Positions 3,682 to 24,281 of a DNA stretch of 50,898 nucleotides are shown in pieces. Made by a program: the position numbers and the translations under genes. Position 1 is the first letter of the stretch; every line of letters begins with the position of its first letter. The notes under the pieces are model-generated. The model did no database searches, was not told the DNA's origin, and saw only the letters and a list, made by a program, of their open reading frames with translations. This stretch comes from an uncultured Bacteroidales bacterium. Lineage in GTDB: Bacteria; Bacteroidota; Bacteroidia; Bacteroidales; UBA4417. The stretch lies in contig CAISRK010000188.1 in NCBI GenBank assembly GCA_903887815.1, positions 1 to 50,898 on the forward strand. The letters run 5' to 3'.

Positions 3682-3686
3682 CTTAA

Positions 3687-5186: not shown

Positions 5187-5260
5187 TATGTGGTGTATTA
5201 ATTCATATTTAAATTAATCTGTTGCTCTTTGTTACGTCATATTGATAAAAAATGATTATT

Positions 5261-6586: not shown

Positions 6587-9500
6587 AAGCCTATTAATAA
6601 ACTCTTTGGTTGAGGACAGGTGAAAAAATCTGTTCCAAGGGCAATTGTATTAAGACCGTTGTAATTCACTTCAGGGTCAATGCCTGAATACCGGGTAAAG
6701 GTTAGCATGTTTTTGCCTGCAATAAACAACTCCATGCGCTTAAAACCGGCTTTTCTTATCAGGGAAAGAGGCAATTCATTGCTTAGCCGGATGGTTTTTA
6801 GCCGTAAAAAAGATCCGTCTTCAACAAACCGCGAAGAAGTGAGCTGATTATAAACCGATGCTTTGGGGACATCGGTTATATCGCCCGGATGTTGCCATCG
6901 CCTCAGAATAGCCGTAGTCTGGTTACTTTGCGAAATAGTTTCGGTATAAATGCGTGTCGAATTAAAAATTTCGTTTCCAGATGAAAACGCAAACATAAAG
7001 TTAAGGCAGAACCCTTTGTAAGTTAAAGTGCTACCGATACCTCCGAAAAAATCAGGATGAGGGCTGCCGATTTTCTTACGGTCGAGGTCGGTGATTTTCC
7101 CGTCAAGATTAAGGTCTTCATATATAAGATTACCGTCGTCAGGGTCTACACCCAACACATTAAAACCGTAAAAGTACGAAACCGGTTCACCTACAGTAAT
7201 GCTGCTGCCTGCTCTCCCGATATTTTGAATAGGCTGGTCCTGGTAGAGTTCGAGAACCTTATTCATGTTCGCAGTAAAGTTTAAGTTGGCATCCCAGCTA
7301 AAGGTGCCTTTTATGACAGACGCAGTAAACAATGCTTCTATACCCTGGTTTTGAAGTTTCCCGATGTTGGACATCATATAAGCATATCCCGAAGAGGTAG
7401 GCATTGGTTTTTGAAGCAGCAGGTCTTTTGTTTTCTTGTAATAGTAATCGGTACGAACATTCACCCTGCTGAACAATTCAAATTGAGCCCCCAGGTTTAA
7501 CTGGGTGGTCGATTCCCATTTCAGATCGGGATTGGCAAGCTGGGTGGGGCTGATGCCACCTTCGCCACCGTAATTACTGCCTGCCGAAAAAAGATTTTGC
7601 GATGTAAAATTACCAATCTGATCATTACCTGTCTTGCCATAACTGCCTGACAGAATCAGTTTTGTAAAAGCCCGGTTCTCGAAAAATGATTCTTTCGACA
7701 CATACCAAAGTCCTGAAAAGGAAGGAAAGAAACCATACCTGTTGTTCTCACCGAATTTCGATGAGCCATCGTAACGCATATTTAAGGTAAAAATGTAACG
7801 CTGGTCGTAACTGTATTTTATCCTTGTGAATAGCGAATTGGCAGCCGAATTGGTTTCATATGATTGGGTGGCAATTGGGGTTGCCGCATCCTGTAAAAAC
7901 TCAAAGCTTGTGCCAGCAAAATTCTGTGCCCTCAGGAAAATATCATGCTCTTTATTGCTTTCGAGGCTGAAACCGGCAGTTATATCCAACTGCTGCAGAA
8001 ATCTTTTAATGGAATAGTCGGCATACATAGTTTGATAAAAACGGAGTGCGTTGCTCGTGGCTTCGATGCCCAGACCGTTATATTTTGCTCCCTGCCGGGT
8101 CGATTTGGGGGCAAAAGTTTCCTCCCGAAGATTGTAATAATCAAGTCCGGTCAAACTCCTGAGAATAAAGTTTTTAAAAATCTCATAATTGACTTTGAAA
8201 TTGAAGGTGTTACGATAGGTATATGCCAGGTTTTTCTCGAGCATGGCAATTGAAACCGGGTTGGCATAGGGTCCGTCGTTGTTGTATGTTCCATCGCTGT
8301 TGGAAACCGGGTAGACCGGTGGCATTGAGATGGCATTGGGCAGAGGGCCGTTAAGCGTTTGGTCGCCTTCCACCCGGTTATTGACTGAATAGGCAAAACT
8401 GTTTCCTGCTTCGATACTCAGGAGATCGTTAATACGATAATCATAGTTCATGCGGATATTGTATCGCCGGAAGTCGGAGCCTAGTATAATACCTTCCTGG
8501 TTGAAATAATTGCCGCTGATGTAATAACGTGATTTTTGAGTGCCTCCACGCACCGACAAGCCCAGATCAAAGGTTGGAGCCTTTCTGAATATTTCATTTT
8601 GCCAGTCAGTATCGATGGAGTTGTTTCGGATTTCATCCTCACTGTATACCGGAGGTTTCCCTCCTGCTGCTGCCTGTTCATTCATCAGTTTCATCCATTG
8701 ATTGGCATTGAGCATATCAAGCTTACCGGTAGTTTGCTGAAATCCATATTGGGTATAAAACTCTATCCTGTTTTGGTTCGGCAATCCTCGTTTCGTATTA
8801 ATAAGGATTACTCCATTTGATGCATTCGATCCAAAAAGTGAACTGGCAGCGGCATCTTTCAGTACCGAAACTGACTCAATATCATTCACACTGATATCGT
8901 TTATGGCATCAATAGCTTGTCCGCTGAAATCAAGTTGTGAGAAATCGCCGGTAATTACAGGCACACCATCAATAACATAAAGAGGTTTATTCCCGGCAGT
9001 TATTGAACTTATTCCCCTTAAGGAAACATTGAGGCTTGATCCCGGCGTACCCCCATTTGACTGAATCAGTAGTCCGGCAATTTCCGATTGCAGCATAGCA
9101 TTCAGTGAAGAGGTGTACAACTGATCAGTTACATCCAGCTCCCTGTGCGCTACCGACCCTGAAATGAGGTCTTCCGGTTCTTTGCCAAAAGCAACTACTA
9201 CCGTCTGACTAAGCACCTGAACCATAGGCATGAGTTTAATGTCCAGAACTGTATCGCCTATAGCCATTACGTCCCAGGATGAATATCCAATACATGAAAT
9301 ACGCAGCCTGCTTCCTGGAGATGACGGCACTTCGAGTTTAAACCGTCCGCTTGTGTCGCTGATTGTTCCGTAGGCTGTTGAAATAAGCGAAATGCTTGCA
9401 CCAGGCAAGGGAAAAGAACTGTTGGCATCGCTTACCAAACCAGTAATTAAGTGAGTGGATTCCCCCTTAACAAGTAGTTTCAGGATCACCGTTTTACCAT

Positions 9501-9813
9501 TAAAACGGGCCTCAAGTCCTGCCTTCCGGGTTACCAACCTGATAATTCCCTCTGCATTTAATTGCCGCGCTGCAACTGTTATGAGCCTGCTGCTTTTAAT
9601 TTCAGTATCACTATAGGCAAATTCATAACCAGTTAAAGTCGCAACATCACTAAGAATTTGCTTCAGGGGTTGTGATTCGTATTGAATATTGAACTTTTCC
9701 TGGCTCTGGGCAACCAATCCTAGCGAAGAGATGCTACAAAGCATAAACAGCATTACGGTTTCCCATTTAAAGAACAGGAAAATCCTTACACATTTGTTTT
9801 GCAGGAAAGCCAT
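6571..9813 (-). CDS. SusC/RagA TonB-dependent transporter with N-terminal STN signalling domain
   Basis: 1080 aa. STN-like segment FNIQYESQPLKQILSDVATLTGYEFAYSD, carboxypeptidase-regulatory-like ITGLVSDANSSFPLPGASISL, plug region (NKPLYVIDGVPV), long beta-barrel with C-terminal aromatic residue. Confidence 0.85.
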   Translation of the reverse strand: MAFLQNKCVRIFLFFKWETVMLFMLCSISSLGLVAQSQEKFNIQYESQPLKQILSDVATLTGYEFAYSDTEIKSSRLITVAARQLNAEGIIRLVTRKAGLEARFNGKTVILKLLVKGESTHLITGLVSDANSSFPLPGASISLISTAYGTISDTSGRFKLEVPSSPGSRLRISCIGYSSWDVMAIGDTVLDIKLMPMVQVLSQTVVVAFGKEPEDLISGSVAHRELDVTDQLYTSSLNAMLQSEIAGLLIQSNGGTPGSSLNVSLRGISSITAGNKPLYVIDGVPVITGDFSQLDFSGQAIDAINDISVNDIESVSVLKDAAASSLFGSNASNGVILINTKRGLPNQNRIEFYTQYGFQQTTGKLDMLNANQWMKLMNEQAAAGGKPPVYSEDEIRNNSIDTDWQNEIFRKAPTFDLGLSVRGGTQKSRYYISGNYFNQEGIILGSDFRRYNIRMNYDYRINDLLSIEAGNSFAYSVNNRVEGDQTLNGPLPNAISMPPVYPVSNSDGTYNNDGPYANPVSIAMLEKNLAYTYRNTFNFKVNYEIFKNFILRSLTGLDYYNLREETFAPKSTRQGAKYNGLGIEATSNALRFYQTMYADYSIKRFLQQLDITAGFSLESNKEHDIFLRAQNFAGTSFEFLQDAATPIATQSYETNSAANSLFTRIKYSYDQRYIFTLNMRYDGSSKFGENNRYGFFPSFSGLWYVSKESFFENRAFTKLILSGSYGKTGNDQIGNFTSQNLFSAGSNYGGEGGISPTQLANPDLKWESTTQLNLGAQFELFSRVNVRTDYYYKKTKDLLLQKPMPTSSGYAYMMSNIGKLQNQGIEALFTASVIKGTFSWDANLNFTANMNKVLELYQDQPIQNIGRAGSSITVGEPVSYFYGFNVLGVDPDDGNLIYEDLNLDGKITDLDRKKIGSPHPDFFGGIGSTLTYKGFCLNFMFAFSSGNEIFNSTRIYTETISQSNQTTAILRRWQHPGDITDVPKASVYNQLTSSRFVEDGSFLRLKTIRLSNELPLSLIRKAGFKRMELFIAGKNMLTFTRYSGIDPEVNYNGLNTIALGTDFFTCPQPKSLLIGLCARF

Positions 9814-9899
9814 TTGAATCTTTTCACCTTATTTTGAGGTTAAAGATAATGGAAAAAGTATTGCGTTTGTTGCTGAAAATATCAAGATGGCAAAATCAG

Positions 9900-10880
9900 C
9901 TATTTTCGTAAACTTAAGACAATGGTGTCGTCAGATTGGGTAGCCTTGACAGGAGCCATTGAGCTGATCATTGATAAGGTTTCTTTCAGCGTTTCGTCGC
10001 TCAGGGAAAAAGTAAAATTATAAGCTGTCACATCCTGATCAACAAGGAACTTAAGCCCATACCGTTTGCCAAGTTCATTTGCGATATCTTTGAGCGGCCT
10101 GTTATCAAACGAAAGTTTAGGCTCTTTCCAGAGCGAAAGTTCCCTGGCGTGTACAATATTGACCTGGAAACTACCTGACGCCTTGTTGAAAATAAATTTT
10201 TCGTCGGGTTTCAATTGTTTGATTAACTGCCCTTTACTGTCATTTATTTTAACAACGCCTTCTACGAGCATTGTCTCAATATCAGAAGTGCCTGGATAAT
10301 TGGAAACACTGAACGAAGTACCTGTTACCTCAACTGAGAGCATGCCGGTATTAACCTGGAACGGGGTGTTATTTTTCAGTACTTTATAAAAAGCAAGTCC
10401 TTCCATTTCAACGACCCGTTTTCCAGTGAAATTTTCAGGAAAACTCACATTGCTGTTTTCGCCGAGCCATAAAAGCGAACCGTCAGGCAGCGTAAAGGAT
10501 TTCACTTCTCCTGATGATGTGGTAAACTGAAGTTGTTTAACAACAGTATCTTTTTGAAAAATGAAATACAGAGCCGCTGCAATACCTGCCAGTATTGTAA
10601 TACCAGCTACTAACCGGTATACCGGGAACATCCTGATTTTTGGTACTGAATAGGCTTTTTCTTCAATCCGGCTGAAAATGGCATCGAAATCGGGTGCTTT
10701 CGATTGTCTCTTGATTTCTTCGGGATGGTTCCACTGATCTTCCATCATGCTGTTAACCTCTTCCGAATTAAACAATTCCTTTTCATCGCGCCTGCTATAT
10801 AAGCCTGCGTAGAAGCGTTTAAAAATTTCTTTATTCCTAATCTGTTTCATTCTGTATTTTGATTCCTGGTTATTATACAC
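9900..10880 (-). CDS. FecR-family anti-sigma factor
   Basis: 326 aa with one central TM helix (RLVAGITILAGIAAALYFIF) and a C-terminal FecR-like periplasmic domain. It sits between an ECF sigma gene and an STN-SusC gene. The ORF-track start at 10880 is GTG; an in-frame ATG (MKQIRNK) at 10850 is equally plausible. Confidence 0.8.
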   Translation of the reverse strand: MYNNQESKYRMKQIRNKEIFKRFYAGLYSRRDEKELFNSEEVNSMMEDQWNHPEEIKRQSKAPDFDAIFSRIEEKAYSVPKIRMFPVYRLVAGITILAGIAAALYFIFQKDTVVKQLQFTTSSGEVKSFTLPDGSLLWLGENSNVSFPENFTGKRVVEMEGLAFYKVLKNNTPFQVNTGMLSVEVTGTSFSVSNYPGTSDIETMLVEGVVKINDSKGQLIKQLKPDEKFIFNKASGSFQVNIVHARELSLWKEPKLSFDNRPLKDIANELGKRYGLKFLVDQDVTAYNFTFSLSDETLKETLSMISSMAPVKATQSDDTIVLSLRK

Positions 10881-10906
10881 TTAATGTAGTAAATACACTT
10901 AAGTGA

Positions 10907-11485
10907 TTATGTTGATATTTTTTTTAGTGCTTTTCGCAGGGTTTGAAGAGCCAGGCTTTTATGTACTTCGATGGTTCTGACCGAAAGGTTGAGTAATGAC
11001 GCAAGTTCTTTGTTTGAAAAACCTTCAAAATTGCTCATTACAAAAACTTTCCTGCGTTGAGCAGGCAATTCGGCAATGATTTTATCTATACCCGCTTTGA
11101 GGTCGGCAAAAATCAATTCGTTTTCGAGATTTGGAATCTGCACCATATGATCGACGATATAATTCCGGTAAGCTTTTTCGTTGATTTTTTTGCGCTGGAT
11201 ATTGAAAAGATGGTTCTTGGCTATGGTATAAATGTAGTTGTTGAGCGAATGTTCTTCTTTCACCCCATTACGCTCATCCCATAATTTAATAAACACATCC
11301 TGCACGACATTTTCGGCATCTTCGGCAGAGTTGTAGTACCTAATGGCAAAATAGTATATCTTTTCCCTGTATTTCCGGAAAATTTCCTCAAATGCCTTTT
11401 TATCTCCAACCTTCAACCTGCTTACAAGTTGCCTGTCATCATTGTCATCAAGCATAAACTGTTCCCGGTTTTTCTTATCCGGCAA
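10907..11485 (-). CDS. ECF-type RNA polymerase sigma-70 factor
   Basis: Region 2 (AEDAENVVQDVFIKLWD) and region 4 HTH (FSNKELASLLNLSVRTIEVHKSLAL). The codon at 11485 is TTG; an in-frame ATG (MLDDNDD) lies at 11455. Confidence 0.85.
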   Translation of the reverse strand: MPDKKNREQFMLDDNDDRQLVSRLKVGDKKAFEEIFRKYREKIYYFAIRYYNSAEDAENVVQDVFIKLWDERNGVKEEHSLNNYIYTIAKNHLFNIQRKKINEKAYRNYIVDHMVQIPNLENELIFADLKAGIDKIIAELPAQRRKVFVMSNFEGFSNKELASLLNLSVRTIEVHKSLALQTLRKALKKIST

Positions 11486-11580
11486 AGTTAATGTTTATGT
11501 CGATACTATTCGGCAAACAGAAACTACGCACAGAATATTTATAGCATTATTAAACCAGACTTGAAGATAAGCATTACCAC

Positions 11581-12888
11581 CTATTTATCTATCTTGATGA
11601 ACCTGGCATTAAAAATCTGGTTGCCCGATTTAATTACTAAAAAATAGTACCCTTGCTTTAATCCAGAAACATTAATCTGCGGTGTGCTGTTGGTTTCGTT
11701 TTGCAGAATGAGTTTTGAATAAATATCGTAAATTTCGATAGAGTAATTCTTTGTGTAAGTAAAATTCAATATATCTGTAACAGGATTTGGGAATAATGAA
11801 ATAATACAAACATTTTTATTTCGTTCAGCTAATGAAGTAATTGGGTTGCAATCGGGTGCGGCTGAAGGGGTGATTGTTTGCAATACTCCATTTACAACAT
11901 ACCAATCCTGCCACGAACCTCCGACCCCGGTTTTCCAGTTGGCAAGATTAAAAGAATTGGCTCCATTAGCTATTCCCGGTACCTGATATACTTTTACAGC
12001 CTGAGCATTGCGGTTCCATGTGAGTGGTTGTGATGCCTGGCAAGTCTCCGGCTTATTAGGCATTGTACAGTTTGCCTGAAGAAAATAGGCAAAATCCTGG
12101 TAGGACGGATAGCTTCCATAAACATATGCCATACCATTTGTATCAATACACACAGCAACATATTCGTTGCAGGCTATACCAAAAACGACAGGTTCATTAT
12201 AATCCTGCATGATGCGGGCCAAAAAAGTTACATGCCTGCCTTTCCTGTCGGGGTTATTATAATGTGTATCGGTAATTACATTATCCAGCCAGGGATTTAA
12301 AATAAAATCGTCCTTGAGCAAGGTAACATTTGTATTGTAAGGGTTAGCAAGAGCTGCAGCCGATGTCACTGATGCGTATTGCGCCGTATATGCAATATGA
12401 CCCATGACGGCCATCCCCGCTGAAGTTCCGCCAACAGGTACTTTTTTCTCGTTGATTAAATAATTGATTGCCGAAGCAATTGGTGTGTTTTTCCAATACG
12501 AAACATAATCCCACTGGTTTCCACCTGCAATCCATAACGCTTCAGCATTTCTTATTTGCCGGATAACATATGGGTCGGTCGATGCAGAGGCATTATTGAA
12601 CACTATTGATTGAACTGAATTTACTGATACGCCTAATAGCGAATACAAATAAGTATTGTATCCGTTGCTTCCGCTTGCACGCAACACAACAATATCTCCA
12701 CCTCCGCTATGCTGTAAAAACCATTTCATCGCATTGTCGTTTTCGGTGGCTCCACCCATTAAGACTGTAACTCCTGATGCAGGGGTTGTAACATCGGAAG
12801 TGTCGCCAGTAAAATAGCTTGTATAGTTTTGGGCGGATGCAGTGAAAAATAAGAAGAAAACGGCAGTTGATAATTTCAGCTTTTTCAT
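11581..12888 (-). CDS. Secreted peptidase S51 (cyanophycinase-like) with T9SS C-terminal sorting domain
   Basis: 435 aa with a signal peptide. S51 layout: VLMGGATEND..., IAGGNQWDY, nucleophile motif GGTSAGMAVMG, His region ITDTHYNNPDRKGRHVTFLARI. T9SS CTD LFPNPVTDILNF...GYYFLVIKSG. Confidence 0.75.
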   Translation of the reverse strand: MKKLKLSTAVFFLFFTASAQNYTSYFTGDTSDVTTPASGVTVLMGGATENDNAMKWFLQHSGGGDIVVLRASGSNGYNTYLYSLLGVSVNSVQSIVFNNASASTDPYVIRQIRNAEALWIAGGNQWDYVSYWKNTPIASAINYLINEKKVPVGGTSAGMAVMGHIAYTAQYASVTSAAALANPYNTNVTLLKDDFILNPWLDNVITDTHYNNPDRKGRHVTFLARIMQDYNEPVVFGIACNEYVAVCIDTNGMAYVYGSYPSYQDFAYFLQANCTMPNKPETCQASQPLTWNRNAQAVKVYQVPGIANGANSFNLANWKTGVGGSWQDWYVVNGVLQTITPSAAPDCNPITSLAERNKNVCIISLFPNPVTDILNFTYTKNYSIEIYDIYSKLILQNETNSTPQINVSGLKQGYYFLVIKSGNQIFNARFIKIDK

Positions 12889-12911
12889 ATTTGGATTCCT
12901 TTTATTGTTTG

Positions 12912-12919
12912 CAAAAATA
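12912..12919 (-). promoter_or_regulatory. Candidate Bacteroidota -7 promoter box (TAnnTTTG) for the S51 gene
   Basis: The minus strand reads TATTTTTG about 24 nt upstream of the ATG at 12888. Confidence 0.3.
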
Positions 12920-12956
12920 TTTAAGTCAACTACTGATCAGAAACAAAACATGCATT

Positions 12957-14348
12957 TTATACTGTTTTGAAAAAGTACAGTGAGATAATCAGGAGTATCA
13001 TTGCAGTTATAAAAAATATCAGCAGAAGTTTAACAAACCATTTCAACCAAATCTGATATGGAATATTTGCAATTGCCAGCACGCCCATTGTAACACCGCT
13101 CGTGGGGACGATCATACTCATAATGCCATCACCCAGTTGAAAAGCAAGGATGGCCGTCTGCCTCCCGATTCCCAATAAATCACTCAGGGGCGCAACGATT
13201 GGAACCGTTAAAGCTGCCTGGCCGGAGCCGGAAGGAACAAAAAATGTAAAACAGCTCTGAAAAAGGAAAATAAACTGTATGGATACTTCGGCAGGTAAAT
13301 CCTTGCCCCAGGTTGAAACGGCATACAGAATACTGTCAATGATTTTTCCATCTGTTGCAATAACCAGTAATCCCCGTGACAACCCTATGATAAGCCCTGC
13401 AGTAACCATATCTTTTGCCCCGCTTATAAACGAATCGATGGTTTCTTTCCCCGGGAGGCGGTAAATTATTGCCGAAACTATTCCCAGTGCCAAGAATAAA
13501 GCTGAAATCTCATTGATATACCATTTCCATTTATTTGCACCTACTACTAAAATAATGAGAGAGATAAAAAGAAAAGCCAGTATCAGTTTTCGTTTCCAGG
13601 TAAATTTCATCTGGTCGGCGTTGCTTAAATCCTGCAGGTTGCGGGTTTTATCGAGTTCATAAACTGGACTCAGGGCCGGGTTCCTTTCCAGCTTACGAGC
13701 ATAAAACATCACATAGGCAATTGCAATTGAAGTCATAATGACCCAGACAATAATCCTGAAATCCCAGCCACTGAACATCGGTAGCTCGGCAATACCCTGG
13801 GCAACTCCAATATTAAAAGGATTGGTTATGGCAGCGGCAAACCCCACGCCTGCAGCCATATACGACATACATATACCTGTTATCGAATCATAACCCAGTG
13901 CAATTGCCAGGGGTATGGTGATCATCACAAACACGATCACCGATTCGCTCATTCCAAATGTTGCCCCGGCCAGCGAAAACAGGATCATTATCAGCGGAAT
14001 AACCAGTTTCTTGTATTTAGGTTTCCGTATGCTCAGGTTTAATACACTCGATAAGCCGGAACTGATGGCCCCTGTTTTATTGATCATCCCGAAAGCGCCG
14101 CCTACGAGCAGGCAAAACCCTATGATCTGGGCAGCCGAAACAAAGCCTTTGATCGGGGCGGTCAGCATGGCCCAGAGGCCCTGCGGCTGGTTCGGGATTT
14201 CTTTGAACGTGCCCGGTACAACTACCATACGCCCGTTGAATTCCGCCCTCTGGTACTCGCCGGCCTGTATTATCCAGGTGAGAATGACAAAAACAACCAT
14301 GATAAACATGATGATCGTGATGGTGTGCGGAAAGCCTTTTATTTTCAT
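12957..14348 (-). CDS. YfcC / DcuC-type (C4-dicarboxylate anaerobic carrier superfamily) integral membrane transporter
   Basis: 463 aa, highly hydrophobic with more than 10 predicted TM segments. The N-terminal pattern MKIKGFPHTITIIMFIMVV...EYQR and overall length match YfcC-family proteins as I recall them. Confidence 0.7.
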   Translation of the reverse strand: MKIKGFPHTITIIMFIMVVFVILTWIIQAGEYQRAEFNGRMVVVPGTFKEIPNQPQGLWAMLTAPIKGFVSAAQIIGFCLLVGGAFGMINKTGAISSGLSSVLNLSIRKPKYKKLVIPLIMILFSLAGATFGMSESVIVFVMITIPLAIALGYDSITGICMSYMAAGVGFAAAITNPFNIGVAQGIAELPMFSGWDFRIIVWVIMTSIAIAYVMFYARKLERNPALSPVYELDKTRNLQDLSNADQMKFTWKRKLILAFLFISLIILVVGANKWKWYINEISALFLALGIVSAIIYRLPGKETIDSFISGAKDMVTAGLIIGLSRGLLVIATDGKIIDSILYAVSTWGKDLPAEVSIQFIFLFQSCFTFFVPSGSGQAALTVPIVAPLSDLLGIGRQTAILAFQLGDGIMSMIVPTSGVTMGVLAIANIPYQIWLKWFVKLLLIFFITAMILLIISLYFFKTV

Positions 14349-14389
14349 GAGTATACTTTTATTCTGTTGACAATAAGTGGCCTAAATGG

Positions 14390-16372
14390 CTACCTGATAA
14401 CACATAATTTTGACGTACAGAACCTGTTCGACTTTAAATCACGGATATTTACAAGGTAAAGACCTTCGGTGCATAATGAAAGTGAAACCTCGGTATTGTC
14501 AGCAAACATTTTTGAAGAAATAATCCTGCCTGACATATCAGCCACCTCAACCGAATAGTTGCTTCCGCTTCCCTGGATATGAAATAAATCTTTAGCCGGG
14601 TTTGGATAAATGTTCATCTTCAATCTATCATAATTGTTTACCGATACTGTGACATTCCTGCCAACAGTAATGGTATCCGTAACACCCAGAAACTTCAGGC
14701 TCATCGATCCGAACCCTGCAATATTGCGCGATGCGGGGTATGGCCCCTGGCTGGCTAAACCGGAAACCGTGCCATCATTCTGTAAAAAAATAAGGGGTGA
14801 ACTCCCCGAAATATTCTTAAAGTACGATTTTCTGTCGTTTGTAATTCCATAGGCAGCATAGGTATTAGCGGTAATATATATGCCATATTTTAACGAATCG
14901 GATATCATGGCATAAGGCAACCCGGTAACGGTATTTTCATAGGTATCGGTGCTGATGAATGCATTGGGCATAATAGCTGTCGTTTTCAGCAAACCAAGCC
15001 CGGGCAGAAACTCAAGTGTTCCATGGTAGGAAGTATATCCGTAGCCGGTATATTTATCTATAACGGTCTTTCCTGCAAACCTCGCATTATCTCCTGCAAA
15101 GAATGAAATCATTCCAGTTTGCCTTAGTCTAATGTTTAAAAAACTTCCATTACCGGGCCCATTTATAAAATTCATAAAGGTTGTGTAGTCATTTGCAATT
15201 ACAAAGAATTTCTTAGCTTTATCAATACTTTCATGTACGGTAACATCGTTTTGATAGGCAGGTATTGCCTGAATAATATAAACGTCAGTTGCCCCTTTGG
15301 CTTGCAGAACAGATTTTGCATCATTTGCCCTTGTAGCGTCAGTTCCGGTAACAATTACAATTGCATCACTCTTTGCTCCGGTCAGGTTAACAAAATGTGT
15401 ATATGCATCATCCGACGGGTAGTCGGTTCCACTAAAGTACAACGATAATCTTGCATTTTCCTCAATAACCTTAGGTTGTATTAAATCATTTAAACCTCCG
15501 ATTACTCCGGTATTTAAATTTATGGTGCATCCATGGATTAATTGCGTGAATTCCATGTTATTAGACCTTAACATACTAACTGTGGTATCATAGGGGTGTA
15601 TGGCATTTTTATTATAGTAAAATCCTACTGCACCTGTTCCATATACCGTTGCATTTCCTAAGGAATCGATGCAGAGTGCGGTATGATCATCCACCCCGAT
15701 TCCCATAGCAATTTCCCTTGTTTTTTTATACCAGGAAGCAAGGAAAGAAGATAATCTCCCGAATCGGCCTCTCTCGGCAAAATGCGTGTCGTAAATATAT
15801 TTTCCGGGTAAAGTTTCCAGGAAATCATTTTCCAGGGTTATTTGCGGGGAATATGCATTCTGCAAAGCAGCAGCCGGATCAACTGAAGTTACTACTGCAG
15901 TGTATACTATTGGCGAAAGAATAGCTGTTCCGGCTGAGGTTCCGGAGAGTACACCTCCATGATTATAAATGTATTGAAGCGCTTCCTGTGTTTTGGTCCC
16001 CTGGTAATAGGTGTAATATTTCCCCTGATCACCGCCTTTGATAAAAACCCCGTCGTAAGTTATTAAAGAGTCATACAACGACTGTTGCTGAGCACTCGTT
16101 CGATTGGGAATAATAAAGTTTTTTGCAGTTATTGCGCCAAAACTTCTGAAGTAATTTGGAATCCATTCGGTTGCAGAAGCATCATAAGAAACAACAGCAA
16201 TCCTTTTATTATGCGCATGCTGAACAACCCAGCTATAAGGTGCATCGCTCCAGCCGCCGGCACTTTCGGCTGCACCACCTGCAAGCATTATAAATCCCTG
16301 GGCAAATGAACCTAACCCGGAAATTGTTATTACAATTACCCCAAAGAAGTATTTAAAAAAATGATTTTTCAT
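14390..16372 (-). CDS. Secreted tandem peptidase S51 (cyanophycinase-like) protein with T9SS C-terminal sorting domain
   Basis: 660 aa. Domain 1 has IMLAGGAAES, IKGGDQGKY, GVLSGTSAGTAILS and YIYDTHFAERGRFGRLSSFLA. Domain 2 (aa ~305-545) repeats the layout without the catalytic Ser/His. T9SS CTD MNIYPNPAKDLFHIQG...GLYLVNI. Confidence 0.75.
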   Translation of the reverse strand: MKNHFFKYFFGVIVITISGLGSFAQGFIMLAGGAAESAGGWSDAPYSWVVQHAHNKRIAVVSYDASATEWIPNYFRSFGAITAKNFIIPNRTSAQQQSLYDSLITYDGVFIKGGDQGKYYTYYQGTKTQEALQYIYNHGGVLSGTSAGTAILSPIVYTAVVTSVDPAAALQNAYSPQITLENDFLETLPGKYIYDTHFAERGRFGRLSSFLASWYKKTREIAMGIGVDDHTALCIDSLGNATVYGTGAVGFYYNKNAIHPYDTTVSMLRSNNMEFTQLIHGCTINLNTGVIGGLNDLIQPKVIEENARLSLYFSGTDYPSDDAYTHFVNLTGAKSDAIVIVTGTDATRANDAKSVLQAKGATDVYIIQAIPAYQNDVTVHESIDKAKKFFVIANDYTTFMNFINGPGNGSFLNIRLRQTGMISFFAGDNARFAGKTVIDKYTGYGYTSYHGTLEFLPGLGLLKTTAIMPNAFISTDTYENTVTGLPYAMISDSLKYGIYITANTYAAYGITNDRKSYFKNISGSSPLIFLQNDGTVSGLASQGPYPASRNIAGFGSMSLKFLGVTDTITVGRNVTVSVNNYDRLKMNIYPNPAKDLFHIQGSGSNYSVEVADMSGRIISSKMFADNTEVSLSLCTEGLYLVNIRDLKSNRFCTSKLCVIR

Positions 16373-16628
16373 ACAATTGCTTTCTGGTGTTTTTAAATAC
16401 TGGAAATAAGTTATATTCCTGGTTAAAAAACAACTCCTTGACTAAATGAATATGTTTCCCTTTAAAAAAAAGGCTGTTCTATAACTTCCTGCAGTTCTTT
16501 TAAATTGATATTCTTTAAATGCATTCTAATCTGGTTATGCATTTTCAGGATAAAAACCAACGGAACACTATTACCAGGAGTTTTTCGAACAGCCTCTCGA
16601 TACAACAATCACTAATCAACCACATCCA

Positions 16629-19166
16629 TTACTGAATCATCAATTTTGTAACATTCAGGTCATTATTTACAAGGGTGCGTAACAAATAAACGCCTCGCGG
16701 CAGGCTCGAAACGTCCAGTTTTAGTCTGTTCGGACCTAAAACCGCATTTGAGTTCAGAGTAAATACAACACGTCCGGTAATATCTGCGATGCTAATATTT
16801 GCCATTCCGCTTTTCATCAGGTTATAGTTCAGATTGACTTCACCCTTAGCAGGATTTGGATAAATGGAAACATCAAATGTACCCGGTTTATAATCAGCCA
16901 GTCCAACAAGCGAATTATTATAAACCTTAATGTTGTCAACTGCCAGTTCCGAGCCACCTGCTGTTGCATTCGGCACACCTGTAGTAGGATTAGTATAACG
17001 ATCAGTTGTTAGCACAAAAGCAATCCATACAGGACGATTAAACCAACCATTGGGTGCGTCGGGAGTTATTTTTTCCTTCAGGTTTATAGATCGGCTTGAT
17101 AAACCCGCACCCGGATTCCCAACAGCAGCTGACCAGCTCTCAGGAGCTACGGAGATAAGCAGATTCCCGTTTTCCTCAAAATACTGAACATTTCGGGTAG
17201 CTCCGGTTACAGCCGGTGCAATATATATTTTATAATCATCCGGGTAGTTCCCCGAGGATGTGAGCGACATTGCCTGCCAGCTTAGCGTTGAATTATTCAA
17301 TAATCCTATAGTTGGTAATATCATCCAGTCGTCGGCTCTGCCGGTTAGCGGCATATTCGAACAAAACGATGAAGAAACTGCCAGTTTGGTTCCTGCAACT
17401 TCAGGGCGCGATGAGGTGGAAACAAGCCATGCACTATCCTGCCAGCGTTCCTCTCCGGAAGCCTGTATATAGCCATCATTATTAATTACAATCCAATCAG
17501 AAGGAAGTTTTCCGGGCAATTCATCGAAAGGCTCGTAGAAAATGGTAGTTTGCCCCGGAGGAACAACAGTAACAGTAACTACCCATGCTGCAGTTGAACC
17601 ATCCTGTGCTGTAACGGTGTATGTTTTAGGCGTTGTATAATTCTGGGGCACTCCACTTGCCGGCGAGATTACAGCATTAGGAGATACGGTAATCGTCGGC
17701 ACTAATGCTGTTACATTGGTCCCGGTAGGTACTTCAAGCGTAACAGTTTTTGTTGAGGCAGTGACAATACCTGTAACAACCGGGTTTAATCCTTCAAACT
17801 TGAAAGTAATAATATCCTTGCCTGTAGTTGGTGGTGTTTTGGTAACTGTAACAATCCAATCCTGGATTAGTGCTCCTTTTGTTAAGGTATAAGTAACAGG
17901 GTTTGTAAAATTGTTCGGCGTTACTCCGCTGACCTGTGCGACTGCTCCAACTTTGGCTGTTGTATTATCTGATAAAGTAAAGGTTGCAACCAATGCGGTT
18001 ACATTAGTTGGATAAGGTACTGTTAACGCAACAGTATGCGCTGTATTATTAATAATCCCAACTACATTAGGCGTTAAACCTGCAAATTTATAGGTAATAA
18101 ATGCCGGGGTTGTAGAGGGTGACGACCAGTTTTCGAAACTTGGATTTGCTATCAGGTTACTGGTTCCCTGCATGTATTTGGCATTGTCGAGATAAAAAGT
18201 GGCTGATCCTGTCCAACTCGCAACAACATCATAAATTCGCATTACCAAATATGCTTTAACGGCATCCGCCGGAGCGGTACCAGTCATGGTCAATGTCTGC
18301 CATGCAGGACTATTGGCACTGAATACAGTTGATGTTACATTTGTACCTATACCTGCGGCATTAATAAAGACCAACCGGGTATTAACTTCTCCGCCTGGAT
18401 CATTATCAAATACATTAATTGAAAAGTTATAAGCAGCACCGGATGTAACATTAAATGTATCGCAAACATAATAGGGAGTTCCGGTCTCGGTAAATGTTAT
18501 TTTCGCTGAAACAAATCCATGTGACACATTAGTTAATTCCGGAATTACAGTCATTGGAACAAAGTTAGCCGGGGAGGATTCTCTCCATTTCAATGGCAGA
18601 GCACCTGTAGCAATAACCGGGGGTACCCAGGTTTCGAAACCGGGATTAACAATCAGGTTGGTAGTGCCGCCTGCCTGATTGTAGATAGCCTTATCAAGAT
18701 TGAAAGTTGCGGAACCTGTCCAACTTGCAACAACATCATAAATTCGGATAACTACATATGCTCTAACGGCATCCGCCGGAGCAGTACCCGTCATGGTTAA
18801 TGTCTGCCATGTCGGGCTATTCGCGCTAAAGGTTGTTGAAGTTACATTGGTACTTGTTCCATTAGCTTTTACAAACACCAGACGTGTATTAACCTCACCC
18901 CCGGCATCATTGTCGAGTACATCAATTGAAAAGCTGTAGGTTGAACCGGAAACAATATTGAAAGTGTCGCATACATAATACGGGGTTCCGGTCTCCGTAA
19001 AAGTAATCTTTACCGACTTTGACCCCTCCGAAAAATTATCGAAATCAGGCGCAATAGTCATTGGGACAAAGTTAGCAGGAGAGGATTCTCTCCAATTAAG
19101 AGGCTGAGCTCTTAATGTTAATCCAATTGCTGCCAAAGCAATGATGAGTAGGAATTTTGATTTCAT
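16629..19166 (-). CDS. Mosaic T9SS-secreted surface protein: 2x CBM-like jelly-roll repeats, 2x Ig-like repeats, choice-of-anchor-J-like domain, T9SS CTD
   Basis: The ORF runs to 19220, but the signal peptide MKSKFLLIIALAAIGLTLRAQ begins at the ATG at 19166. There are two ~169-aa repeats (PLNWRESSPANFVPMT... / PLKWRESSPANFVPMT...), each ending in NLIxNPxFExW. Two ~85-aa repeats follow (ITYKFAGLTP...VTVTKTP / ITFKFEGLNP...VVTVTVVP). Then come FYEPFDELPGKLPSDWIVINNDGY and the CTD VSIYPNPAKGEVNLNY...GVYLLR. Confidence 0.7.
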   Translation of the reverse strand: MKSKFLLIIALAAIGLTLRAQPLNWRESSPANFVPMTIAPDFDNFSEGSKSVKITFTETGTPYYVCDTFNIVSGSTYSFSIDVLDNDAGGEVNTRLVFVKANGTSTNVTSTTFSANSPTWQTLTMTGTAPADAVRAYVVIRIYDVVASWTGSATFNLDKAIYNQAGGTTNLIVNPGFETWVPPVIATGALPLKWRESSPANFVPMTVIPELTNVSHGFVSAKITFTETGTPYYVCDTFNVTSGAAYNFSINVFDNDPGGEVNTRLVFINAAGIGTNVTSTVFSANSPAWQTLTMTGTAPADAVKAYLVMRIYDVVASWTGSATFYLDNAKYMQGTSNLIANPSFENWSSPSTTPAFITYKFAGLTPNVVGIINNTAHTVALTVPYPTNVTALVATFTLSDNTTAKVGAVAQVSGVTPNNFTNPVTYTLTKGALIQDWIVTVTKTPPTTGKDIITFKFEGLNPVVTGIVTASTKTVTLEVPTGTNVTALVPTITVSPNAVISPASGVPQNYTTPKTYTVTAQDGSTAAWVVTVTVVPPGQTTIFYEPFDELPGKLPSDWIVINNDGYIQASGEERWQDSAWLVSTSSRPEVAGTKLAVSSSFCSNMPLTGRADDWMILPTIGLLNNSTLSWQAMSLTSSGNYPDDYKIYIAPAVTGATRNVQYFEENGNLLISVAPESWSAAVGNPGAGLSSRSINLKEKITPDAPNGWFNRPVWIAFVLTTDRYTNPTTGVPNATAGGSELAVDNIKVYNNSLVGLADYKPGTFDVSIYPNPAKGEVNLNYNLMKSGMANISIADITGRVVFTLNSNAVLGPNRLKLDVSSLPRGVYLLRTLVNNDLNVTKLMIQ
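18125..19103. repeat. Intragenic tandem duplication (~507-bp period) encoding the two CBM-like modules
   Basis: Anchors PLNWRE (aa 40 of the ORF) and PLKWRE (aa 209) give a 169-aa period. The two copies are roughly three-quarters identical at protein level by eye. Confidence 0.8.
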
Positions 19167-19462
19167 AAGGACTATGTTTAGGTTAATAAATGGGTATTTG
19201 TTTGTACTTGCTATACACACAACTAGCTAAATATACTTAACCGGAATTAAAAAAAATGATGCTACTTTAAAGTTCTTCCTTAATGATTGCAAAGGGCATT
19301 TGAACCAGCAAAAAACATAAGGCTGTCAATAGAACAGTTATTACTTGCAGACTAATCGTCTTTTACACTATTCAAAAAAAAATAGCTACAGGTTAAGTAA
19401 ATAAATCTCGTCAGGTGTATTTAGATACAACTTGAAATCCTGTTCACATAACCAATGAAAGT

Positions 19463-22400
19463 ATGCGTATGAGAAAGATCATTACACAAATCATGTTGTT
19501 TATGCTTATTGCAACCGGGGCGTATGCGCAACAAACTATTACCGGTAAAATAACTTCAGCAACTACCGGGGAAACTTTACCTGCTGCAACCGTAAAAATT
19601 GCAGGTTCTTCCACCGGAACCCTTACTGACGTCGACGGGAACTATTCCATAAGGGTATTATCAGCTAATGATGTACTCGAAATCAGTTATGTAGGGTATG
19701 CCACACAAAACGTCAAGATCGACGATCAGAAAGCGATTAACGTAGCCCTGGTCCAGAACATGCAAATACTGGAAGGAGTAATGGTGACGGCAATGGGCAT
19801 CAAGGCCGAAAAAAAATCAATCGGGTATGCCGCCCAACAGGTTGGAGGTGATGATCTGAGCAATGCAAAGACAGGTAACCTTGTGAACGCAATGAGTGGA
19901 AAAGTTGCAGGAGTGGAGGTTATAAGTTCATCAGGCACACCCGGGGCATCTTCGAGCATTACCATCCGTGGCCGCTCTTCGTTGCGTGCATCGGGGAACT
20001 CACCGCTTTTTGTGGTTGACGGGGTACCCATAGACAACAGCTACGACGGAAGTTATGTATACGACTATTCTAACAGGGCTATCGACCTTAATTCAGATGA
20101 TATTGAATCACTGACTGTTCTTAAAGGAGCTGCAGCAGCGGCATTATATGGAATAAGGGCTGCCAATGGTGCTATCCTGATCACAACCAAATCAGGCAGA
20201 AGCAATAAAGGTTTTAAGAAAAGCATCAGTTTTAAAACATCACTGGGGTTCGATAAGGTGAACAAATTGCCTGAAAAGCAAACTTTGTATGCTCAAGGTT
20301 CAAATGGAGTCTATTCTTCGACTTCCAACCTAAGCTGGGGTCCTCATATTGATACCCTTCGTTACGATGGAGCAAAGGACTATCCAAAAGATATCAACGG
20401 ACACATAGTGGGTATGAGCGATCCATCTGCTACTGAACAGCCGGCAGTTGCCTACCCAATTGACAACTTTTTCGAAACGGCTATAACAAGTAATTCTTAC
20501 CTCAATATGTCAGGGAATAATGATTACGGAAGTTTCCTTTTCTCGGCAGGCCACCTAAATCAAACGGGTATTGTTCCTAACAGCAAATTCGTACGCACCA
20601 ATATAAAAATAGCCGGTGATGCGAAACTTTCTGATAAGCTCAAAATCTCGGGATCAGCTAATTTCTCCAATTCAGTCAGTAATCTCACTCAAAAGGGAAG
20701 TAACCTTTCGGCTGTTATGGTGGGCCTGATGCGGAATACCCCGACATTCGATCTTACCAATGGCTCCAGTGATCCGGCAAATGATCCTGTTGCTTATATG
20801 TACTCCAATGGTACGCAACGAAATTATTACAGCAGTTACGACAACCCTTACTGGTCGGTTAATAAAAATCAGGCAAGTTCGGAGGTGAACCGCATTATTG
20901 GTAGTACCCAGCTGGATTATGCCTTTTTCCCCTGGCTCAGTGCCATGTACCGGCTAGGTATCGATCATTATTCCGAAAGGCGAAATTCTTTCTTCGATAA
21001 TAACTCAAGCGATACTCCCAATGGCTATGTTAGAGCAAGTATTTATAATTTCAGGGGGATCAACTCCGATATTGTCCTGAGTTCGGAAAAAGATCTGACT
21101 AAAGATTTAAAACTGAATGTCGTGGTCGGGCAAAATTATTTTGATAAAGAAACATATTCAAACAGTCAGCAGGGCGATTCGCTCATTCTTCCAGACTTCT
21201 ATGACCTGAGCAATACAAAAACCGTTTCCGGCGACGATTATGCAACTTCCTACAAGATAGTAGGTTTATATTATGATATCAAATTCAGTTACAAAGGCTT
21301 TCTTTATTTCAGTTCAACCGGCCGCAACGACTGGACTTCAACCCTTGCAAAAGGAAATAATTCCTTCTTTTATCCCTCATTCAGCGGAAGTTTCATTTTT
21401 TCAGATGCTCTTAATATTGATAAAGGTAAAATATTCAGTTATGGAAAAATCCGTGCTTCCTGGGCACAGGTGGGCAACGATGCTGACCCCTATTCTCTTC
21501 AAAACTATTATTCAGCCACACAGGGAGGTATCAGCGGTCAGACTGCCTTTGCCACACAGCGAACCATTGGCAACCATGATCTCATGCCCGAATCAACGCG
21601 TTCATCAGAGATTGGTGCCGATTTGCGTTTCTTTGGCAGCAAAATCAGTCTTGACCTGGCGTATTACCTATCGAAGAGTATCGGACAAATCGTAAGTGTG
21701 CCGGTATCTTATGCAACCGGATACGACCATATCCTGCTGAATGCAGGTGAAATATCCAACAAAGGGTTCGAAGCCCAGATTTCAGTTACACCTGTCGACC
21801 GAAATGGATTTGAATGGGATATGATGTTCAATTTCACCAGGAACCGGAATATGGTTGTAGATCTGCCCGATGGTGTTCCTTTAATCGACTTTGAAACCAC
21901 CGGCGTAAGCAGTACCCGATCAGTTGCTATCGAAGGACAGCCCTATGGTGTGCTTTACGGAACACGCTACCTGCGCGACTCAACCGGGCAGGTTTTAGTC
22001 GGAAACAACGGCTACCCATTGGTTGATGTTCTTTACGGGGTAGTTGGAGATCCTAATCCGGATTACATGTTGGGCATAAGGAACACATTTAACTATAAAG
22101 GATTCCAACTCACATTTCTGTTTGACATAAAACAGGGCGGAGATGTTTACAATGGCACAAAAAATGTAATGTGTTCGCTGGGAACCAGTAAAATAACCGA
22201 AAACCGCGATGAGGATTTCGTTTTCACCGGAGTAAATGTAAGCACGGGTCTGCCCAATGAGGTGAAAGTTAAACGCGACAGAAACTATTACTCCGCACAG
22301 GGCGGACTTGCCGGATTATCGGAAGCAGCCATTGAGGACGGATCATTTGTACGCCTTCGCGAACTTGGGTTTTCATATAATATGCCATCCAAATGGCTTT

Positions 22401-22582: not shown

Positions 22583-22600
22583 CCGATAATACCTTTTCTT

Positions 22601-24236: not shown

Positions 24237-24273
24237 GTATAAATCACTTTGTTTTATATGGATTCTTTTCTTA

Positions 24274-24281
24274 TATCTTTG
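24274..24281 (+). promoter_or_regulatory. Bacteroidota -7 promoter box TATCTTTG (TAnnTTTG consensus)
   Basis: Exact consensus match 22 nt upstream of the ATG at 24303. The same octamer occurs upstream of ileS. Confidence 0.5.

Follow-up and report, generated by a model that had tools for sequence, protein, structure and literature searches.

Two predicted T9SS-exported S51 proteins and a YfcC-family permease in a candidate cyanophycin utilization locus of an uncultured Bacteroidales bacterium

Genes of the locus and their predicted products

The stretch of DNA analyzed here, referred to as the window, is a 50,898-nucleotide contig (CAISRK010000188.1, assembly GCA_903887815.1) from an uncultured, Lentimicrobiaceae-like Bacteroidales bacterium, and our subject is a group of three of its genes, encoding two proteins of peptidase family S51, which we call S51-A and S51-B, and a permease, which a preliminary description of the window had taken for the core of a candidate module for extracellular cyanophycin utilization. 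Cyanophycin is a major fixed-nitrogen store that resists ordinary proteases. The three open reading frames (ORFs) are exactly as first described, with S51-B (660 amino acids, 14390..16372), the permease (463 amino acids, 12957..14348) and S51-A (435 amino acids, 11581..12888) all on the minus strand, and they do stand immediately upstream of a same-strand run of regulatory, SusC/SusD and peptidase genes separated by gaps of 26 to 154 nucleotides. This run comprises an extracytoplasmic function (ECF) sigma factor (10907..11485; Pfam Sigma70_r2, Sigma70_r4_2 and Sigma70_ECF), a FecR-type anti-sigma factor (9900..10880; FecR and FecR_C), a SusC-like TonB-dependent transporter (6571..9813; Plug, TonB_dep_Rec_b-barrel, CarbopepD_reg_2 and an N-terminal STN domain), a SusD-like outer-membrane lipoprotein (5261..6586; SusD_RagB and SusD-like_3, with the N-terminus ..FVAAC), an M14 zinc carboxypeptidase with a signal peptide (3687..5186; Peptidase_M14, E=4.6e-23) and, as its last gene, an MR_MLE-family gene for an enolase-superfamily enzyme of the N-succinylamino acid racemase/o-succinylbenzoate synthase (NSAR/OSBS) type that has no signal peptide (2423..3532).

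On the other side of S51-B, the next minus-strand gene encodes an 863-amino acid protein predicted to be exported by the type IX secretion system (T9SS) (16629..19220). The 256-nucleotide gap between this gene and S51-B contains a 130-nucleotide nested hairpin followed by UUUUUUUU, and this hairpin and U-run, at 16455..16600 on the minus strand, has a minimum free energy of -37.3 kcal/mol (z=-3.4), with none of 200 shuffled sequences being equally stable. It is probably an intrinsic terminator of the 863-amino acid protein gene, and because this probable terminator lies before S51-B, the latter probably heads its own transcription unit. The hairpin is unusually long for an intrinsic terminator, and may alternatively be a regulatory RNA; no Rfam family (for the hairpin or elsewhere) and no tRNA was found in the window, and scans of the window for sigma-70 and terminator consensus sequences gave background level only. 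Beyond the 863-amino acid protein gene, on the plus strand, is a second SusC/SusD pair (pair 2), consisting of a SusC-like transporter (19463..22582; Plug and CarbopepD_reg_2) and a SusD-like lipoprotein (22601..23983; SusD-like_2, E=1e-56). At the opposite end, convergent with the NSAR gene, the plus strand encodes a protein of the M28 aminopeptidase family that has both a PA domain and a signal peptide (134..1720; Peptidase_M28, E=2.6e-36). A 113-amino acid GIY-YIG-domain ORF between these two convergent genes (1888..2229, minus strand) is also called in the organism's other assemblies. The system probably spans ~134..23983, together with an isoaspartyl dipeptidase gene (iadA) just beyond the window, because orthologues of the 863-amino acid protein and of SusC/SusD pair 2 travel with S51-B in related loci.

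The permease matches Pfam DcuC with 362 bits (E=5e-108) and the YfcC model NF008611 with 378 bits, below the equivalog cut-off of 500, and is therefore, by its profile matches, a DcuC/YfcC family member, as had been proposed, and not an equivalog of E. coli YfcC. The M14 protein conserves, over 21 orthologues, H94xxE97, R141, N150-R151, H180, Y240 and E276, the full carboxypeptidase machinery, and among solved structures it is nearest to carboxypeptidases N, M and D, with further Protein Data Bank (PDB) matches to carboxypeptidases A and B and to MpaA. Carboxypeptidases N, M and D act specifically on basic residues at the C-terminus, and the M14 protein is a candidate Arg-releasing or β-Asp-Arg-cleaving enzyme. 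An identification with CphZ, the M14-clan β-Asp-Arg hydrolase described alongside an arginine transporter that also imports β-Asp-Arg (PMC9974463), was rejected, as the protein matches only PF00246 in Pfam and neither CphZ nor 3fmc nor 3lwu appears at E<=1 among its PDB matches. The NSAR/OSBS assignment of the MR_MLE-family gene comes from TIGR01928 (349 bits, cut-off 200.65) and from the N-acylamino acid racemases 1sja, 4a6g and 2zc8 in the PDB (E~1e-98), and on these grounds we rejected a reading of it as an Ala-Glu-type dipeptide epimerase of the kind that pairs with MpaA in murein recycling (mpaA-ycjG).

The 863-amino acid protein has a signal peptide, tandem N-terminal repeats, Ig-like domains of the DUF5018/DUF4960 type, a choice-of-anchor J domain and a type A sorting domain. 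Its Ig-like domains match the DUF4960-domain protein 8a9y_T in the PDB (E=5e-10), which we take to be the surface binding protein of the Bacteroides thetaiotaomicron levan utilisome, and it is a candidate surface substrate-binding protein. The export signals of the locus fall into three sets. S51-A, S51-B and the 863-amino acid protein combine a signal peptide with a C-terminal sorting domain (CTD), which predicts a location at the cell surface or in the medium, with SusD as a lipoprotein; M14 and M28 have a signal peptide only and are predicted to be periplasmic; and IadA and NSAR have none and would be cytoplasmic.

S51-A and S51-B in relation to known cyanophycinases

Both S51 proteins match the Pfam Peptidase_S51 family above its gathering threshold of 23.9 bits (S51-B with 31.4 bits and S51-A with 30.0 bits), and the expectation that both would carry a signal peptide and a T9SS C-terminal domain agrees with their N-termini, each with a predicted hydrophobic signal peptide ending in ..AQ, and with their matches to Por_Secre_tail (E=7.5e-11 for S51-B and 6e-12 for S51-A) and to the NCBIfam type A sorting domain TIGR04183. 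In Foldseek comparisons, the sorting domains of both AlphaFold2 models superpose on the CTDs of the T9SS substrates 8glk_D and 8qb1_A. In S51-A, a single catalytic domain (residues ~21-345, nucleotides ~11854-12828) precedes the CTD (residues 365-432, nucleotides ~11593-11796). S51-B is longer, with a first domain of the cyanophycinase fold (residues ~26-298, 15479..16297), a second domain (residues ~305-575, 14648..15460) and the sorting domain (residues ~588-660, 14393..14611).

The nucleophile elbow is GTSAG in both proteins, with Ser146 in S51-B and Ser156 in S51-A. In S51-B the histidine segment reads D195-T-H197-F-A-E-R201-G-R203-F-G-R206-L (DTHFAERGRFGRL), and in S51-A it reads D207-T-H209-Y-N-N-P213-D-R215-K-G-R218-H (DTHYNNPDRKGRH), such that the cyanophycinase-type layout first ascribed to both proteins holds for the elbow in each, and for the R-G-R...R-L string in S51-B, but not for that string in S51-A, where it is replaced by P213-D-R215...R218-H. 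Across 90 homologues of S51-B, down to 33% identity, Q116, S146, D195, H197, R201, R203 and R206 are invariant and the acid D229 is nearly so, an Asp or Glu being found here in 53 of 60 family members taken from genome loci. Across 61 homologues of S51-A, the invariant positions are Q125, S156, D207, H209, R215, R218 and E242, with Pro213 in place of Arg178 of the Synechocystis cyanophycinase CphB. Residues C240, C247, C274, C283 and C347 of S51-A are also invariant or nearly so among the 61 homologues and are absent from canonical cyanophycinases at the aligned positions inspected, which would fit the presence of disulfide bonds in an exported enzyme.

S51-B is more than an enzyme with a tail. 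Several lines of comparison, each weak and all concordant, indicate that it is probably an active-looking S51 domain fused to a degenerate S51 duplicate. In the AlphaFold2 model, domain 2 repeats the order of strands and helices of domain 1 (residues ~27-298); the profiles of the two domains align in register up to the nucleophile elbow (hhalign, E=1.4e-3); and the profile of domain 2 alone has as its top match in the whole PDB 7uqv, the pseudo-CphB of Pseudobacteroides cellulosolvens, in register over 160 residues (E=0.0027). At the position of GTSAG, domain 2 has a conserved FFAGDNARFAG in which the serine nucleophile is missing, and a Pfam scan of residues ~305-575 alone gave no meaningful family. 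CphB is a homodimer, and the fusion may be a covalent pseudo-dimer that mimics it, or may provide an extra binding surface.

By their sequences, S51-A and S51-B belong to the cyanophycinase side of family S51, yet neither is a canonical cyanophycinase. The TIGR02069 cyanophycinase model gives 83.1 bits over residues 29-256 for domain 1 of S51-B and 46.4 bits for S51-A, compared with an equivalog cut-off of 126.6 that co-located short and mid-length S51 genes of related loci exceed (135-184 bits). Cyanophycinases are the best solved sequence relatives of both proteins in phmmer searches of the PDB, with PepE, the α-aspartyl dipeptidase of the same Pfam family, far behind; the best match of S51-B is 7uqv (E=3.8e-13). 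The models (pLDDT, the predicted local distance difference test score, 93.9 for S51-B and 92.1 for S51-A) have as their top Foldseek targets 7uqv and the CphB structures 7uqw and 3en0 (E ~1e-13 to 1e-16), with TM-scores (TMt) of 0.76-0.81 for S51-B and 0.75-0.80 for S51-A, as against 0.55-0.68 for PepE. Identity to CphB is 17-21%. The PepE model NF003642 (cut-off 156 bits) gives 21 bits for S51-A and no match for S51-B, and in neighbor-joining trees, bootstrapped, rooted on E. coli PepE and computed without CphE, PepE is a distant, long-branch outgroup. A PepE-like placement, which would have told against the first proposal, is thus contradicted by profile, phmmer, fold and tree comparisons alike, all of which put both proteins nearer to cyanophycinase. 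Within the trees, the canonical clade consists of Synechocystis CphB with short (276-330 residues) and mid-length (419-456 residues) S51 proteins, the scanned members of which pass TIGR02069; the S51-A family is monophyletic (bootstrap 100) and groups with S51-B-like sequences, apart from that clade (bootstrap 70).

For residue comparisons, the 3en0 sequence taken from our alignment reproduces the published CphB numbering of Gln101, Ser132, Asp172, His174 and Glu201. Six CphB residues, Gln101, Asp172, Gln173, Arg178, Arg180 and Arg183, are reportedly critical for function and are treated here as the pocket. The canonical short and mid-length forms retain all nine positions checked, including these six. 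The S51-B family retains the equivalents of Gln101, Ser132, Asp172, His174, Arg178, Arg180 and Arg183, with Glu201 mostly changed to Asp, and the S51-A family retains those of Gln101, Ser132, Asp172, His174, Arg180, Arg183 and Glu201. Gln173 is replaced by Thr or Ser in the S51-B family and by Thr in S51-A, in which Arg178 is also replaced by Pro, leaving five of the six pocket residues in S51-B and four in S51-A. A predicted Ser-His-acid triad is present in both (S146/H197/D229 in S51-B and S156/H209/E242 in S51-A). That the triad and the arginine cluster are strictly conserved over the 90 and 61 homologues argues for S51-B and S51-A being live enzymes that bind an acidic substrate, and the altered pocket residues suggest a specificity or mode of action unlike that of CphB.

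The 7uqv structure provides a warning about inference of this kind. Its PDB title is pseudo-CphB and it keeps all of the critical residues in the aligned stretches; it is reportedly near-identical in structure to a cyanophycinase and without cyanophycinase activity, such that conservation of residues and fold gives no guarantee of cyanophycinase function. It was considered as an orthologue of S51-B, being its best match, and this was rejected since the bootstrapped tree puts 7uqv in the canonical clade and not with S51-B (bootstrap 70), which makes it a caution and not an orthologue.

Related loci and the iadA gene beyond the window

To examine gene context, one genome per species was scanned, which gave 529 S51-B relatives, and the best 80 loci (L-numbers) were analyzed with 10-kb flanks, with neighboring ORFs clustered without bias and then scanned for families. 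The nearest S51-B relative, at 73% identity, is in a Lentimicrobiaceae metagenome-assembled genome (MAG), which is the closest reference genome (L003). The two-domain S51-B form was found in Bacteroidota and Ignavibacteriota, and relatives of its N-terminal domain in KSB1, Calditrichota, Marinimicrobia and Planctomycetota. In the 45 loci from these species-representative genomes that are at least 12 kb long and contain two-domain S51-B, a SusC/TonB-dependent receptor is present in 84%, an orthologue of the M14 gene in 42%, an orthologue of the YfcC gene in 38% and an NSAR-type gene in 20%, and IadA and/or a canonical cyanophycinase is present in 47%. The IadA proteins of related loci are at equivalog level (TIGR01975 437-496 bits, cut-off 331), and IadA and canonical cyanophycinase genes directly adjoin S51-B orthologues. 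In the clade closest to the window's S51-B, for example, L007 contains an operon headed by a T9SS 845-amino acid orthologue of the 863-amino acid protein and continuing with IadA, cyanophycinase and S51-B, with a divergent SusC/SusD pair, and L004 has the order ECF-cyanophycinase-S51-B-YfcC. The most complete case is L019, from Cytophagales, in which one run of genes encodes SusC/SusD, a T9SS protein, S51-B, an S51-A-like protein, a canonical cyanophycinase, YfcC, an IaaA-like β-aspartyl peptidase (Asparaginase_2, PF01112, E=2e-104) and an arginine dihydrolase/DDAH-family protein; as read from these family assignments, L019 shows the full logic from polymer to dipeptide, to Asp and Arg, and on to Arg catabolism. 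YfcC genes are directly adjacent to cyanophycinase genes, or overlap them, in L019 and in L034, the latter from Marivirga sericea DSM 4125, which is the sole cultured strain among the 80 loci. A MAG of Draconibacterium orientale (L025), a species that is in culture, also has a related locus.

Other partners recur as well. The M14 gene often directly follows S51-B, and NSAR is next to M14 in 10 related loci. The NSAR/OSBS proteins are 64-98% identical between Bacteroidales and Ignavibacteriales loci (L022, L024, L039, L054 and L056), compared with 28-35% for S51-B, which points to strong constraint or to a lateral transfer of M14 and NSAR as a module. Orthologues of the 863-amino acid protein travel with S51-B in L003 and L005-L008, and those of SusC/SusD pair 2, which are the only SusC/SusD genes beside S51-B in L007 and L008, are also found in L003, L005 and L019, which indicates that pair 2 is probably part of the same system. 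The loci in Ignavibacteriota have S51-B, as their only S51 gene, and M14, with no IadA seen. This version (L039, L046, L054, L056 and others) includes a T9SS 373-amino acid protein, an RpiR/SIS regulator, an 820-amino acid TonB receptor, a 914-amino acid protein without an assigned family, a PorV/PorQ-family barrel, a C45 Ntn-hydrolase-like protein, S51-B, M14, a saccharopine-dehydrogenase-like protein, a T9SS β-lactamase-fold protein and NSAR, with YfcC upstream in some loci; its regulator, of a sugar-phosphate type, is odd in a peptide locus.

The preliminary description saw no isoaspartyl dipeptidase in the window and recommended a search beyond it. Indeed, no such gene lies within the window, and bases 1-133, a non-coding plus-strand spacer before M28, have no match to the IadA C-terminus in any of three frames, but the gene is present just past the left edge. 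The contig L083, from a separate assembly of this organism, encodes an M28 protein with the same sequence, agrees with the window at every base of the aligned overlap and reaches 513 nucleotides beyond the window's left end. At L083:3-479 it encodes the C-terminal 158 amino acids of IadA, which align in register to positions 220-376 of the 389-position TIGR01975 profile with 151.6 bits (E=3.4e-44), the cut-off of 331 bits applying to the full-length protein. This iadA gene is on the same strand as M28, and its 3' end is ~35 nucleotides before window base 1 and ~168 nucleotides upstream of the M28 start. In close relatives the gene order is M14, NSAR, M28, IadA, and the pairing of IadA with M28 recurs in L022-L029. 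In another relative (L093) the IadA..M28 genes are divergent from an S51-SusC-SusD-PKD locus, and this arrangement suggests that here too the DNA to the left of iadA may contain a second locus, one with a canonical enzyme. A homology search for the full-length IadA of this organism returned only contig-end fragments and one 121-amino acid remnant, the latter beside the trp operon in the relative L091. Almost all iadA orthologues near that of this organism (L083, L084 and P0241-P0342) end at contig ends, and the organism's assemblies break between or inside iadA and M28, which suggests a repeat or strain variation at this point.

Proposed function, alternatives and known systems

We consider it fairly probable that the locus is a Bacteroidales module that digests cyanophycin extracellularly and imports the products; our confidence in the exact role of each S51 protein is lower. 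The strongest evidence is gene context, which is the main support for a cyanophycin substrate. From the domain content, export signals, catalytic residues, folds and co-occurrence described above we infer a route in which every substrate and every step is a prediction. S51-B and S51-A would leave the cell via the T9SS, stay on or leave its surface and, as serine peptidases, attack extracellular cyanophycin from lysed producers, and the 863-amino acid protein would be a candidate binder of the polymer at the surface. SusC/SusD would carry dipeptides or short oligomers across the outer membrane, while the STN domain of the pair 1 SusC, FecR and the ECF sigma factor could provide induction by substrate. 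The M14 carboxypeptidase and the M28 aminopeptidase would trim fragments in the periplasm, a step for which related loci additionally encode a canonical cyanophycinase of the signal-peptide or lipoprotein type. YfcC would then move β-Asp-Arg (or Arg) across the inner membrane, and cytoplasmic IadA would convert β-Asp-Arg to Asp and Arg. The predicted compartments of S51-A and S51-B, of M14 and M28, and of IadA and NSAR fit this route. Of the features expected for a cyanophycin utilization locus, YfcC and SusC/SusD are present, iadA is ~35 nucleotides outside the window and the S51 genes are non-canonical.

The first proposal of an extracellular cyanophycin module is supported in part, by the conserved neighborhoods with IadA, cyanophycinase, YfcC and SusC/SusD, by the iadA gene just past the window edge and by the nearness of both S51 proteins to cyanophycinases as compared with PepE. 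Neither S51 protein is a canonical cyanophycinase by score, clade or the residues at Gln173 and, in S51-A, Arg178. Several observations weigh against it. Both S51 proteins score below the TIGR02069 equivalog cut-off, both fall with sequences separate from the canonical CphB clade, both have lost Gln173 and S51-A has lost Arg178, and the pseudo-CphB 7uqv has the critical residues and reportedly lacks the activity. In a literature search we found no reported activity for any T9SS-tagged S51 protein. In about half of the S51-B loci, mainly those in Ignavibacteriota, IadA and canonical cyanophycinase are both missing within 10 kb, and a canonical cyanophycinase is missing from the window as well. 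Members of the S51-A family mostly stand among genes of an unrelated kind, with one positive case, and in the closest relative, L003, the S51-A slot (13846-14862) is taken by a RhuM-family "virulence protein" gene (Pfam E=2e-110), which suggests recent gene turnover at this position. The YfcC permease is a candidate importer of β-Asp-Arg or Arg whose substrate is only predicted. Finally, cyanophycin chemistry gives no job for NSAR, nor for the C45, β-lactamase-fold and RpiR genes of related loci.

Some of these observations would be accommodated if the locus scavenged other iso-linked or D-residue peptides, for example isoaspartyl peptides of aged protein, peptidoglycan stem peptides or iso-linked Asp-Arg cyanobacterial peptides (microcystin fragments), with cyanophycinase and IadA genes as occasional add-ons. 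We regard this as rather unlikely. The placement of S51-A and S51-B outside the canonical clade with altered pocket residues, the half or so of S51-B loci that lack both IadA and canonical cyanophycinase, and the recurrence of partners suited to unusual peptides (the NSAR-type racemase, the M14 protein with its weak MpaA-like match, a T9SS β-lactamase-fold protein like D-aminopeptidase/AmpH, the C45 Ntn hydrolase and, in Ignavibacteriota, the RpiR/SIS regulators) would all suit it. However, the specific accessory enzymes, namely canonical cyanophycinases, IadA or IaaA-like enzymes and the arginine dihydrolase-family gene of the L019 operon, indicate β-Asp-Arg; the three-Arg cluster of CphB is retained in S51-B; and murein-specific genes (amidases, MurNAc catabolism) were not seen in the loci.

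It is less likely still that S51-B, and possibly S51-A, is a silent or binding-only pseudo-cyanophycinase that feeds SusC/SusD, with hydrolysis left to canonical enzymes encoded elsewhere, perhaps to the left of iadA. The precedent is 7uqv, with the fold of a cyanophycinase and, reportedly, no activity. S51-B already has one clearly degenerate S51 domain, most Bacteroidales loci pair it with a canonical enzyme, and L093 has its S51-SusC-SusD-PKD genes divergent from IadA..M28. Against this, Ser146, His197, Gln116, Asp195 and Arg201/203/206 of domain 1 are invariant, and D229 nearly so, over the 90 homologues, which is unusual for a dead enzyme, the appearance of a degenerate copy in the S51-B family is that of domain 2, and S51-B is the sole S51 gene in the Ignavibacterial loci. 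That the adjacency has no functional meaning, YfcC being a stand-alone carrier of basic amino acids or C4-dicarboxylates and the S51 proteins independent secreted Asp-specific peptidases for a general peptide utilization locus, is very improbable, since the co-occurrence of S51-B, YfcC, SusC/SusD, M14 and IadA recurs, reordered, in Bacteroidota, Ignavibacteriota, Calditrichota and KSB1, far beyond chance for genes that most genomes lack or have in one copy, even with the S51-A family usually in unrelated contexts, YfcC below its equivalog cut-off and a RhuM-family gene in the S51-A slot of L003.

The cyanophycin module that we favor has a forerunner in Salinivirga cyanobacteriivorans L21-Spi-D4, whose locus is said to resemble a polysaccharide utilization locus (PUL). 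The preliminary description held that no such system had been characterized in Bacteroidota, and this was overstated because, as later papers describe it, the concept of a cyanophycin utilization locus was published in 2017 as a genomic prediction. This "cyanophycin utilization locus" of the Bacteroidetes scavenger Salinivirga cyanobacteriivorans contains genes for cyanophycinase, along with iadA and a transporter (Ben Hania et al. 2017, as cited by Sharon et al. 2023, PMC10206079), and a similar cluster is found in Flammeovirga pacifica (Sharon et al. 2023, PMC10206079). Sorokin et al. (2018, PMC6243061) note two S51 proteins of different structure in each of S. cyanobacteriivorans and strain Omega, and in each case one of the two carries a Por domain for secretion. 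As far as can be judged from the descriptions in these citing papers, the S. cyanobacteriivorans locus resembles ours in its S51 "cyanophycinase" genes (one of them Por-tagged), iadA and transporter, and the related loci L020-L029, which hold IadA, a long T9SS S51 protein, a canonical S51 protein, SusC/SusD and YfcC, have the same content. On the same descriptions, the window differs in having an S51-A-family gene instead of a canonical cyanophycinase, and in having an ECF sigma/FecR/STN-SusC switch, probably two SusC/SusD pairs and an M14 and NSAR pair. What appears to be new is that such loci contain S51 proteins of three distinct classes, that the long form joins an active-looking and a degenerate domain in tandem, that the variant in the window is wired to ECF/anti-sigma control and has no canonical enzyme, that M14 and NSAR recur as partners, and that the loci extend so widely across phyla of the Fibrobacteres-Chlorobi-Bacteroidetes (FCB) group.

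Among individual enzymes, CphE is reportedly the extracellular cyanophycinase of Pseudomonas anguilliseptica, and we propose it as a functional analogue of S51-A and S51-B, although it is a Sec-secreted proteobacterial enzyme, whereas they are predicted T9SS cargo and S51-B has tandem domains. To our knowledge, biochemical work on how non-producers harvest environmental cyanophycin is limited to a small number of CphE enzymes, from proteobacteria and Gram-positive bacteria, and to dipeptide users such as Pseudomonas. Synechocystis CphB (3en0, 7uqw) shares with S51-A and S51-B the fold, the GTSAG elbow, the histidine, the acid and equivalents of Gln101, Asp172, Arg180 and Arg183, but is cytosolic, while the two proteins studied here are predicted to be exported, form separate clades and have changes at Gln173 (both), Arg178 (S51-A) and Glu201 (most S51-B members). 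The 7uqv protein is the top fold match of both models and has the string RGRFGRL in common with S51-B, but it is single-domain, with solved chains of 259-275 residues that lack a T9SS sorting domain. PepE has the same Pfam family and general fold but is a cytosolic dipeptidase and a much weaker match. For the proposed pairing of M14 with YfcC, the closest precedent is CphZ/AotO with AotJQMP (PMC9974463), from which the window differs in that its M14 protein is of the PF00246 type with a signal peptide and not AstE/AspA-like as CphZ is, and its transporter is a DcuC/YfcC permease and not an ABC system. The overall plan resembles SusC/SusD PULs and RagAB-type peptide importers in its TonB-dependent transporter with a lipoprotein lid, its surface enzymes and binders, and its ECF/anti-sigma control via STN. 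Typical PUL surface enzymes are lipoproteins, whereas here they are predicted T9SS cargo and the predicted substrate is a peptide polymer.

If the locus works as proposed, Bacteroidota and their relatives apply PUL logic, that is, surface enzymes, SusC/SusD and sigma/anti-sigma control, to a peptide polymer; current annotation over-calls the families of the exported enzymes as "cyanophycinase" or leaves them as "T9SS sorting domain protein"; and domain 1 of S51-B, S51-A, M14 and YfcC become candidate enzymes and, in the case of YfcC, a candidate carrier for β-Asp-Arg. A bolder version, which we offer tentatively and hold to be less likely than not, is that S51-A and S51-B represent two families of cyanophycin depolymerases that are exported by the T9SS and occur widely in the FCB group (Bacteroidota, Ignavibacteriota, Calditrichota and others), with S51-B a live/dead pseudo-dimer, and that periplasmic M14 together with NSAR constitutes a fourth β-Asp-Arg route beside IadA, IaaA and CphZ. 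Formally, β-Asp-Arg is α-amino-N-succinyl-arginine. If true, the M14 and NSAR route would explain the many loci without an isoaspartyl dipeptidase, and the scavenging of cyanophycin as a public nitrogen source would be common and would extend far outside cyanobacterial mats.

The remainder of the window contains two further gene sets. Right after SusC/SusD pair 2, plus-strand genes at 24249..30670 encode a GH13 cyclomaltodextrinase-like protein, a GH31 α-glucosidase-like protein and a second GH13 protein with a SusG-like C-terminus; this resembles an α-glucan/starch set, and pair 2 might serve the starch set, the S51 system or both. Further along, a plus-strand redox and pyridoxal phosphate (PLP) enzyme run at 39133..50113, apparently unrelated to the S51 locus, encodes a 1064-amino acid Fe-S flavoprotein similar to GltD and dihydropyrimidine dehydrogenase, a GH63/MGH1-like hydrolase, two PALP-family enzymes, a GH16 protein and an 850-amino acid molybdopterin xanthine-dehydrogenase-like protein with fused 2Fe-2S domains.

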